From the IMG/VR virus record IMGVR_UViG_2545824708_000027, positions 1-10,975 of that record: 10,975 nucleotides of DNA. The stretch is one strand, 5' to 3'. The translations under genes and the position numbers were made by a program. The stretch is from a virus. Its lineage: Duplodnaviria; Heunggongvirae; Uroviricota; Caudoviricetes. Below, one piece after another: positions 3,162-4,124 of the stretch; position 1 is the stretch's first letter, and each line of letters opens with the position of its first letter. Under the pieces are notes generated by a model that made no database searches, had not been told where the DNA came from, and was given only the letters and a program-made list of their open reading frames with translations.

Positions 3162-4124
3162 ATGAGCAGCAAGCTTCATGGTCTTGTCTGGGAAGGGTGC
3201 GCCTTCACCGGCATGATCTTATCCAGGGTGGCGGTTATGGCCCGTCTTGCAGACTACAGCAATGACGAGGGCGTGTCATGGCCTGCCATTGAAACTATCC
3301 GGCGTCAGATCGGTGCAAGAAGTGAATCCACAGTGAAATCGGCTATTGCAGAACTGGCGAAAGAGGGCTGGCTGACGAAGGAAGAGCGTAAGGTCGGTGG
3401 GCGTAATGTAAGCAATATCTATCGGCTTAATGTGGAAAAACTCGAAGCAGCTGCGGCGGCGGCGCGTGAGTCATATAAACCGAAAAGAAAAATTAGCCCG
3501 GCAAAAAATGACCCGTTAACAGTTGACCCGTCAAATATTGACCCCTCAACGGTTGACCCGTCAAATTTTGATGGATCAACTGTTGATAAAAAACTGCCGA
3601 TTAGGGGGGCGATGATTGACCCCGATCCGTCAGTATTAAAACCTGATCCGTCAGATAAAAGATCTTCTTGTCCGGACGCTTCGCAACCGGACCCGCAGAC
3701 GGCTGAACAGGATTTTTTAACCCGACACCCTGACGCGGTTGTGTTCAGTGCGAAAAAACGCCAGTGGGGAAGTCAGGAAGATTTGGTGTGCGCACAGTGG
3801 ATCTGGGGACGAATCGTGAGTCTTTACGAGCAGGCGGCCAGCGATGATGGCGAGATCACTAGACCGAAAGAACCCAACTGGACAGCATGGGCCAATGACG
3901 TTCGCACAATGCGGATGCTGGATGGCAGAACTCACAGACAAATTTGTGAAATGTTTGGGCGTCTCCAGCGGGATTCGTTCTGGGTAAAAAACATCATGAG
4001 TCCGGCAAAACTCCGGGAAAAATGGGATGAACTGGTTATCCGCCTGGGGCGTTCGCCCGCGCAGCGTTGCGTGAATCACATTTCTGAACCGGACACTGAA
4101 ATACCGCCGGGATTCAGGGGGTGA
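3162..4124 (+). CDS. Phage replication initiation protein (O-like / YdaU-like), N-terminal HTH, central Pro/Asp-rich repeat linker (320 aa from ATG 3162; GTG 3147 alternative)
   Basis: ORF track 3147..4124; ATG 3162 has a GGGGG SD 5 nt upstream; N-terminal helix-turn-helix-like segment; five-residue repeats DPLTV/DPSNI/DPSTV/DPSNF/DGSTV encoded by a 15-bp periodic iteron-like array; immediately upstream of the DnaC-like gene. Confidence 0.8.
   Translation: MSSKLHGLVWEGCAFTGMILSRVAVMARLADYSNDEGVSWPAIETIRRQIGARSESTVKSAIAELAKEGWLTKEERKVGGRNVSNIYRLNVEKLEAAAAAARESYKPKRKISPAKNDPLTVDPSNIDPSTVDPSNFDGSTVDKKLPIRGAMIDPDPSVLKPDPSDKRSSCPDASQPDPQTAEQDFLTRHPDAVVFSAKKRQWGSQEDLVCAQWIWGRIVSLYEQAASDDGEITRPKEPNWTAWANDVRTMRMLDGRTHRQICEMFGRLQRDSFWVKNIMSPAKLREKWDELVIRLGRSPAQRCVNHISEPDTEIPPGFRG
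3509..3598. repeat. Iteron-like array (candidate replication origin) inside the O-like gene: 15-bp periodic repeats of TGACCCGTCAAAT-like units, followed by an A/T-rich segment with clustered GATC sites
   Basis: TGACCC-type units begin at 3509, 3524, 3539, 3554 (exact 15-bp period); degenerate units at 3569 and 3584. Downstream 3600-3665 has a GATCCGTCAG direct repeat (3624-3633, 3645-3654) and GATC at about 3574, 3624, 3645, 3660. Same layout as ori-lambda inside O. Confidence 0.6.

Follow-up and report, generated by a model that had tools for sequence, protein, structure and literature searches.

A replication origin made up of initiator-binding repeats that lie within the initiator's own gene has been known since lambda. 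Plasmid iteron replicons, for example those served by RepA, pi or TrfA, typically have iterons of 17-22 bp that are spaced about two helical turns apart and are located outside the rep gene with an AT-rich neighbour, and a plasmid Rep protein contains two winged helices. In E. coli oriC and P1 oriR, which are controlled by Dam and SeqA, the GATC sites cluster within or beside the melting segment, close to the initiator repeats. The repeats in the initiator gene differ between lambda, P22 and phage L; in P22 there are four of ~20 bp and in gene 18 of phage L there are six imprecise repeats of 11 bp, where the origin was inferred from sequence alone (PMC8022706). Here we describe an array of 15-nt repeats in the O-like replication initiator gene (3162-4124) of a lambdoid prophage. 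The array was found in a stretch of 10,975 nt, positions 1 to 10,975 of IMG/VR virus record IMGVR_UViG_2545824708_000027 (Caudoviricetes), which is referred to below as the window. The segment that holds the array is most likely the replication origin of this phage, bound by its own initiator, an arrangement that leaves the concept established with lambda unchanged.

Results

The repeats lie inside the initiator gene, on the plus strand, and comprise five good units and one degenerate unit of 15 nt (TTGACCCGTCAAnnn), each an internal palindrome, between 3508 and 3597. Unit 1 (ATGACCCGTTAACAG, 3508-3522) has a degenerate right half. Unit 2 (TTGACCCGTCAAATA, 3523-3537) is a perfect TTGAC-CC-GTCAA palindrome and is followed by unit 3 (TTGACCCCTCAACGG, 3538-3552) and unit 4 (TTGACCCGTCAAATT, 3553-3567). 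Unit 5 (TTGATGGATCAACTG, 3568-3582) is a variant palindrome, TTGAT-GG-ATCAA, that contains the GATC at 3574, and the degenerate unit 6 (TTGATAAAAAACTGC, 3583-3597) carries an A-tract, which is also seen after the array in homologues. The good units share the dyad core TTGAC-NN-GTCAA, and in unit 5 the symmetry has been kept through changes on both arms. An initial annotation, made from the sequence alone, had placed units at 3509 (TGACCCGTTAA), 3524 (TGACCCGTCAA), 3539 (TGACCCCTCAA) and 3554 (TGACCCGTCAA again) with two degenerate units next, and these are indeed found, the latter at 3569 (TGATGGATCAA) and 3584 (TGATAAAAAAC). Its description of the encoded peptide repeat as DPxxV is roughly right, as the array is in frame within the open reading frame 3147/3162-4124 and encodes NDPLT VDPSN IDPST VDPSN FDGST VDKKL.

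For 3497-3571, Tandem Repeats Finder reports 5 copies with a period of 15 (score 66) and 2.5 copies with a period of 30 (score 101). A lag scan of the whole window gave a top segment score of 30 (3497-3586); across 40 dinucleotide shuffles the mean was 9.8 and the highest score 12. The palindromic core TTGACNNGTCAA, with at most one mismatch, occurs three times in the window, in each case within the array, when 0.40 occurrences are expected. The array is real and non-random. In the subfamily to which the window belongs, period 30 outperforms period 15 (84% vs. 71% matches), and the spacers of the units alternate CAG/ATA/CGG/ATT/CTG. The corresponding peptide is a 10-residue repeat, DPSN(I/F)DPSTV, and the 30-nt super-unit is also present in Edwardsiella relatives.

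Homologues were gathered by tblastn and by pattern scans, yielding a sample of 8 phage homologues, 80 loci from genomes of Enterobacterales, each from a different species, and 80 near-identical IMG/VR contigs. The phage homologues, which share 44-56% identity with the tblastn query (residues 1-173), include SfIV, SfII-like phages, phiP27, a Stx2a phage and Klebsiella and Yersinia phages. The name P27 calls for some care. A phage 'P27' has been described with a lambda-like O and six lambda-type iterons (PMC7466680), and L17 of the GenBank phiP27 (AJ298298, L006) belongs to the HTH_36 family, has 15-nt repeats and precedes DnaC-like and helicase genes; these may be two different phages. In 81 of the 86 distinct full-length genes, an array of 3-9 units (most often 4-5) with a period of 15 is located directly after the N-terminal domain, and the consensus derived from 384 units is T-C-T-G-A-C-[G/C/A]-C-[G/A]-T-C-A-A-A-A.

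The distribution of conservation within the unit is informative. Unit positions 3 (T) and 12 (A) both fall on the third base of a codon, yet their information content is 1.58 and 1.62 bits, against 1.22 and 1.12 bits for positions 1 and 2. Position 3 is always T or C and never A or G, while codon 1 encodes 14 amino acids (S, F, P, I, Y, A, T, R, V, C, N and others). When codon 4 specifies serine, 133 unique units have TCA and 14 have TCG, with no instance of TCT, TCC or AGY, and when it specifies P, T, A or L its third base is still A. Mutually exclusive codons are used at the two serine positions of the unit, TCT/TCC at one and TCA/TCG at the other. As a control, these same genes offer their N-terminal domain. 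There the three codon positions carry 1.40, 1.61 and 0.52 bits, and the 30 conserved residues with four- or sixfold degenerate codons average 0.37 bits at the third position. Invariant aspartate residues used as controls are split between GAC and GAT (48/38 and 39/47), and TCA accounts for 13% of the serine codons outside the linker. The initial annotation had proposed a comparison of synonymous-site conservation across homologues, and its outcome, 1.58/1.62 bits at the third positions of the units against 0.37-0.52 in the N-domain control, is in favor of a function for the repeats as DNA. Because the third positions are conserved in the units and the synonymous sites of the N-domain are scrambled, the flanks of the units are held by selection on DNA. 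This comparison indicates that selection on the array acts at the DNA level and overrides the degeneracy of the code.

Variation within the unit clusters in its central 4 nt, and the two flanks mirror each other, with TyTGA to the left and TCArA to the right. As read from the alignment, symmetric flanks around a variable center are the signature of a dyad-symmetric protein site with an uncontacted center. The constraints at the DNA and protein levels, which had been suggested to coincide in the repeats, do not simply do so: selection on DNA dominates, and the repeats encode part of a linker that is predicted to be disordered and whose residues are chemically diverse. The copy number of the array changes in frame: among 74 near-identical relatives that were anchored, three have lost exactly one 15-nt unit and one has lost exactly 21 nt, comprising one copy of the GATCCGTCAG element described below. 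A clade-level covariation of N-domain residues with unit positions 2, 5 and 6 (for example, T at position 2 accompanies S at alignment column 54 and K at column 73) is confounded by phylogeny and was not used as evidence.

Several elements follow the array on the plus strand. A G-run with an inverted half-site, GGGGGGCGATGATTGACCCC, occupies 3603-3622 and is a perfect GGGGTCAA-N3-TTGACCCC palindrome in close subfamily relatives (L009, L014). Next come two GATCCGTCAG elements (3624-3633 and 3645-3654, 21 nt apart), separated by an AT-rich spacer, TATTAAAACCT (3634-3644). The last element, ATAAAAGATCT (3655-3665), includes the fourth GATC and is located at the junction to an exchangeable C-terminal module. 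The spacer falls within the least stable 40-mer of the initiator gene (3630-3669, 33% GC), which adjoins the array. On the other side of the array an A-rich patch of low stability (3467-3506), with the least stable 30-mer of the gene at 3467-3496 (27% GC), is an alternative candidate for the melting region. The AT-richness that had been proposed for the segment next to the array is only moderate: 3568-3665 is 43% GC and the initiator gene as a whole is 52%.

The four GATC sites that the initial annotation had noted exist, at 3574, 3624, 3645 and 3661; their clustering is non-significant within the window, and the comparative data are of more interest. Every homologue contains GATCC(G/A)TCAGTA downstream of the array, and the GATC of this element (3624 in the window, in the first GATCCGTCAG) is present in all 84 of the alignable genes. 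The aspartate codon there is always GAT, whereas in the 15-nt units aspartate is encoded by GAC in 74 of 97 unique units. A second GATC occurs 24 nt past the invariant one in 66 of the 84 homologues (21 nt in the window), and the density of GATC is 17.9/kb in the 120-nt core vs. 3.3/kb in the rest of the gene, a 5.4-fold difference. In 31 of 79 loci the gene directly downstream of the initiator encodes an N6-adenine methyltransferase (24 Pfam Dam PF05869, 5 MT-A70 and 2 of the D12 class), and in the annotated phages L002 and L004 the start of the methylase gene overlaps the initiator stop codon. The downstream gene is lambda-P-like in 8, DnaC-like in 7 and PerC-like in 10 of these 79 loci; the partner gene of the HTH_36 initiator family is highly variable. 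A phage MT-A70 enzyme of this kind methylates GATC, and what purpose phage-encoded Dam serves is 'still not well understood' (PMC7556043). A methylase was noted in the replication module of SfII and SfV in the SfIV genome paper, which does not mention an origin (PMC3851460). As an argument for a Dam-sensitive origin, the presence of GATC sites thus fails as a statistic within the window and holds comparatively (84/84 genes, 5.4-fold density, 31/79 methylases), and it is on account of the comparative data only that the claim is retained. A link of the conserved GATC to methylation or SeqA is plausible, with chances that we would put at about even.

Similarity at the nucleotide level to mEp460-type phages and Rac-type prophages starts abruptly at ~3657, just past the last GATC. 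In the Rac-type gene L169, the C-terminal half is ~89% identical in nucleotide sequence from ~3657 onward and the neighbor is ydaV, which is DnaC-like. The N-domain of L169 is unrelated, and the gene has its own four TCCATCAGGTCAAAATG-like repeats with a 23-24-nt period, followed by an AT-rich stretch. Conversely, the N-domain and array described here are found joined to at least four unrelated types of C-domain. These exchanges indicate that the N-domain and the repeats move together as one specificity module, and the N-domain/repeat module behaved in the same way in the classical lambda/434/phi80 hybrids. In L169, a ydaU-like gene of E. coli AREA_497, the four repeats are followed by ACAGAGAATACA x2.8 (the whole at 1331-1500), and they are possibly the Rac origin oriJ. 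The junction that follows the repeats in the window, AAAAGATCTTC(T/G)T..TCCG (3655-3675, peptide KRSS), is common to phi80 gene 15 (L172 8768-8790). Lambda has AAAAGATTATTCGTC at the equivalent junction (L170 ~552-575), and in SfIV-type relatives CCGTCAGAATCTGGCGG resembles the CGTCAGAGAATTCTGGCG palindrome to the right of lambda's AT-rich block. The shared junction could represent either an origin element that has been conserved or a joint left by recombination.

The initiator has 320 residues (plus strand; RefSeq WP_000095671.1). Its start was set at ATG 3162, which is the RefSeq start in a 99.8% identical E. coli copy, while the mechanically called open reading frame begins with GTG at 3147. 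It matches PHROG 391, 'replication initiation O-like', in a full-length profile match (residues 1-320, E = 2.2e-115) and contains Pfam HTH_36. An AlphaFold model was built on 37 homologues, and confidence is given below as the predicted local distance difference test score (pLDDT). The N-terminal domain (residues 1-105, encoded by 3162-3476) is modeled as a winged helix with three helices and a beta-hairpin wing (pLDDT 71-87) and is the presumed repeat-binding domain; 41 of its residues are invariant in 8 homologues. Its Foldseek neighbors are dimeric, DNA-bound winged helices of the MarR/ArsR/PadR type with weak scores (E ~0.007), and as these matches are generic and weak no specific family was assigned. 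Residues 107-176 have no predicted secondary structure (pLDDT <50) and constitute a predicted disordered linker, where nearly any hydrophilic sequence is tolerated. Residues 116-145 are encoded by the repeats and residues ~155-168 by the GATC elements, so that all of these sequences are within the linker-coding segment. The linker is followed by a helical C-terminal domain (residues 178-297, 3693-4052, pLDDT 75-89) that is 36% identical to the C-domain of phi80 gp15, and by a disordered tail (residues 298-320, 4053-4121).

The end of this tail, residues 300-320 (4062-4121; …SEPDTEIPPGFRG), resembles the C-terminus of E. coli DnaT (PDB 2ru8, 6aep and 9zbt, E ~0.01-0.03), and in a sequence search against solved structures only the last ~20 residues gave a match, to DnaT (E ~0.01). 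The resemblance explains the annotation of some family members as 'primosomal protein I'. In E. coli dnaT precedes dnaC, and from this order the initiator tail may be suspected of contacting DnaC or DnaB. Homology of the N-domain to lambda O was considered and rejected, since hhalign of the N-domain alignment returned a probability of 0.24% and the Pfam match is to HTH_36 and not to Phage_rep_O. The protein is regarded as an analogue of lambda O and not as a detectable homologue.

The window corresponds to the early-right region of a lambdoid prophage, with the gene order cI-cro-cII-like-O-P. An S24/LexA-type repressor gene (1736-2509, minus strand) is followed by a Cro gene (2502-2717), a gene for a YdaT/CII-like protein (2714-3139) and the initiator gene. 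The next gene (4131-4871, plus strand) encodes a DnaC-like helicase loader, the presumed partner of the initiator (Pfam IstB_IS21, E = 1.5e-19; PHROG 50 'DnaC-like helicase loader', E = 1e-81), and 3' of it are DUF1627, DUF977 and further genes. The database contains 915 proteins related to the PHROG 391/HTH_36 initiator at E <= 1e-5, most of them named 'helix-turn-helix domain-containing protein', and 1513 of 5426 complete E. coli genomes contain the gene with the array over the greater part of its length. None of the records of this family that we examined carries an origin annotation. DnaA boxes are not enriched in the window (11 matches vs. 10.5 expected), and no promoter-like or terminator-like sites were found on either strand of 3100-4200. 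The array region matches no Rfam family. An RNA or an antisense promoter as the basis of the repeats is unsupported, given the absence of promoter-like sites in 3100-4200 and of Rfam RNAs in the region.

The sole Rfam match in the window is a full-length DicF antisense RNA at 175-226 on the minus strand (RF00039, 75.8 bits, E = 1e-15), from which it follows that, to the left of its immunity genes, the prophage has a region of the dicB/dicF type for division inhibition. When the window is compared with complete E. coli genomes, coverage never exceeds 67% and the match ends at ~7349. A LacY-family permease gene occupies the right end of the window (9728-10975, minus strand; Pfam LacY_symp, E = 1e-193).

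Discussion

The initial annotation had likened the locus to ori-lambda, and the location of the repeats in the linker, the presence of arrays in 81 of 86 genes, the conservation as DNA and the exchange of the N-domain together with the repeats all fit this arrangement at the level of sequence. The array is placed within the initiator gene between the two domains, it has at least three dyad repeats, it is constrained as DNA and it takes part in module exchange, as expected of an origin of the lambda type. We infer the binding, its stoichiometry, the melting site, helicase loading and the effect of methylation as follows. The segment 3467-3665 would be the prophage origin, embedded in the linker-coding part of the initiator gene. 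The winged-helix N-domain would bind the 15-bp units, each a dyad site of 12-14 bp (TTGAC-NN-GTCAA) packed almost end to end with its neighbors, and the bound units would form a nucleoprotein complex comparable to the O-some of lambda. With sites of 15 bp, each is rotated by ~154 degrees relative to the one before (1.4 turns), and neighbors would lie on nearly opposite faces of the helix. The complex would then destabilize a flanking stretch of low stability, the likeliest being the GATCCGTCAG-(AT-rich)-GATCCGTCAG-ATAAAAGATCT block at 3624-3665, which is favored over the alternative at 3467-3506 because it is conserved. Recruitment of the DnaC-like loader and of host DnaB would fall to the C-domain and the DnaT-like tail, and through the conserved pair of GATC sites Dam methylation or SeqA would probably influence firing or re-firing.

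Several points weigh against this interpretation. The homologues are related by descent and the counts derived from them are not independent; the N-domain control addresses this kinship without amounting to a formal phylogenetic test. In 12 of the 74 near-identical IMG/VR relatives, 3541 has changed from A to C, which converts TTGAC of unit 3 to TTGCC. This may be a tolerated variant, or many of these prophages may no longer be selected for replication, with some copies decaying. The N-domain has no detectable relation to lambda O. The AT-rich element is weak compared with that of lambda, where the block is 23% GC, and a comparable A-rich patch is present upstream at 3467-3506, so that the site of melting is uncertain. 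Taken by itself, the window does not have a significant GATC cluster (scan statistic; 67 of 500 shuffles reach at least 4 GATC per 91 nt). The 5-bp half-sites are ~7 bp apart from center to center, unusually close for a winged-helix dimer, so that a unit may be bound by a monomer or by a dimer. Finally, we found no paper on the repeats of this family, and as most of the subscription-journal literature was outside the search the absence of such a paper is not proven.

These points must be considered together with other explanations of the repeats. One is that the array is a low-complexity pentapeptide linker that arose by slippage and has no function as DNA. A disordered linker is indeed predicted, the copy number ranges from 3 to 9 with changes of whole units, and the period of 15 is a multiple of 3. 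Slippage, however, would not account for third positions 3 and 12 being more conserved than first and second positions, nor for a codon 1 that encodes 14 amino acids and yet retains T or C at its end, nor for the mutually exclusive serine codons in genes whose N-domain synonymous sites are scrambled, and we consider this explanation highly unlikely. It is also conceivable, if improbable, that the units bind the initiator and are mainly regulatory, serving autoregulation, copy control by handcuffing or titration in cis, with the DNA being opened elsewhere in the prophage. Plasmid iterons are known for dual roles in replication and regulation, and the weakness of the AT-rich element could be explained in this way. 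On the other hand, the array is in the middle of the gene, far from the early promoter, with no promoter-like site on either strand of 3100-4200, and the palindromic core (at most one mismatch) occurs nowhere else in the window. Moreover, the succession of array, A-tract, conserved GATC/AT-rich block and module junction parallels the origins of lambda and phi80. Least credible of all is that the repeats bind another regulator, for instance the CII-like/YdaT protein encoded directly upstream, which would drive an antisense promoter in the manner of lambda pRE or paQ. Direct TTGA repeats do recall CII-type sites, but the SfIV-type phages share the repeat core and have an unrelated cII-like protein (BLASTP E = 8.9), and at a locus that encodes a YdaT homologue (31% identity) the repeats are entirely different, in keeping with the different N-domain of its initiator. 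There are no promoter-like hexamers on either strand and no Rfam RNA in the region. The type of repeat tracks the initiator N-domain and not the upstream gene, and the CII-like/YdaT protein was rejected as the binder.

A separate question concerns the conserved GATC, which could be unrelated to methylation if GATCCGTCAG were a variant initiator half-site (cf. TGACCCGTCAA). We regard this as a serious alternative, with a probability somewhat below even. The element shares CCGTCA with the repeat units, the cluster is non-significant within the window, and phage methylases are commonly attributed to anti-restriction. Against this, the aspartate codon is GAT in 84/84 genes at the element and GAC in 74/97 units, so that the T, and hence GATC, is specifically kept; in addition, a second GATC follows 24 nt on in 66/84 genes and an adenine methyltransferase gene is immediately downstream in 31/79 loci. 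If the GATC sites do matter as such, a more elaborate scheme can be imagined, which we advance as a speculation that is rather doubtful. In this scheme the origin is gated by methylation, the invariant GATC pair in the melting region being read by SeqA or the initiator, so that the phage methylase would set the state of its own origin, and the 15-bp sites (~154 degrees per site) would assemble a continuous spiral of winged helices, unlike the lambda O-some. Phage-encoded Dam enzymes would, if this were true, acquire a role in replication. The invariant GATC and the frequency of an adjacent adenine methylase gene thus provide a lead on the purpose of these enzymes.

The value of identifying this segment as a probable origin is largely practical, consisting of a gain in annotation for a very common prophage module, one that occurs across Enterobacterales, and of a defined consensus site. 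Arrays of 3-9 copies, together with the module swaps, offer a natural series for the study of origin specificity. The array is also a clear example of a coding region in which selection at the DNA level overrides codon degeneracy.

It remains to compare this putative origin with known systems. Plasmid iterons are of a different kind, since here the repeats are 15 bp long, contiguous, inside the gene and 1.4 turns apart, and the initiator has one predicted winged helix; the locus does not belong to the plasmid type. The likeness to oriC and P1 oriR is one of sequence layout, with only 2-4 GATC sites here and an initiator that is neither DnaA nor RepA. In P22 and in gene 18 of phage L both the proteins and the repeat sequences are different, and the description of those repeats does not include a codon-position or family-wide analysis (PMC8022706). 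The Rac-type gene L169 is similar in its near-identical C-terminal half, its DnaC-like ydaV neighbor and the relative position of its repeats, and differs in its unrelated N-domain and in the TCCATCAGGTCAAAATG-like sequence and 23-24-nt period of its four repeats.

The phi80 gene 15 origin (JX871397) provides another parallel. It too has an in-frame tandem array, in which four annotated gp15 sites with a period of 21 nt encode a repeated peptide of 7 residues. Its C-domain and that of the window protein are 36% identical, and both genes have the AAAAGATCTTC junction past the AT-rich segment. The period of 21 nt instead of 15, the unrelated, TTCCCGAAAACGG-like repeats and a partner, gp14, that is lambda-P-like set it apart. 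No similarity was found between the N-domains (BLASTP aligns the C-domains only), and gp15 is termed 'similar to lambda O' in the record. With ori-lambda itself the locus shares the cI-cro-cII-O-P gene order, the position of the origin inside the initiator gene, in the linker between a DNA-binding N-domain and a loader-recruiting C-domain (roles that are presumed here), and dyad repeats followed by a segment of low stability. The four lambda iterons, however, are 18 bp long with start-to-start distances of 20, 24 and 23 bp and do not form a strict tandem in frame, whereas the units described here are 15 bp long, contiguous and in frame, and are present in 3-9 copies. The window also differs from lambda in its HTH_36 N-domain, its weaker AT block (33% vs. 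23% GC), its invariant GATC and its DnaC-like partner in place of lambda P. What distinguishes this probable origin from those described before is therefore the combination of a non-homologous winged-helix N-domain, a shorter, strictly tandem and in-frame period, a variable copy number and a conserved GATC.

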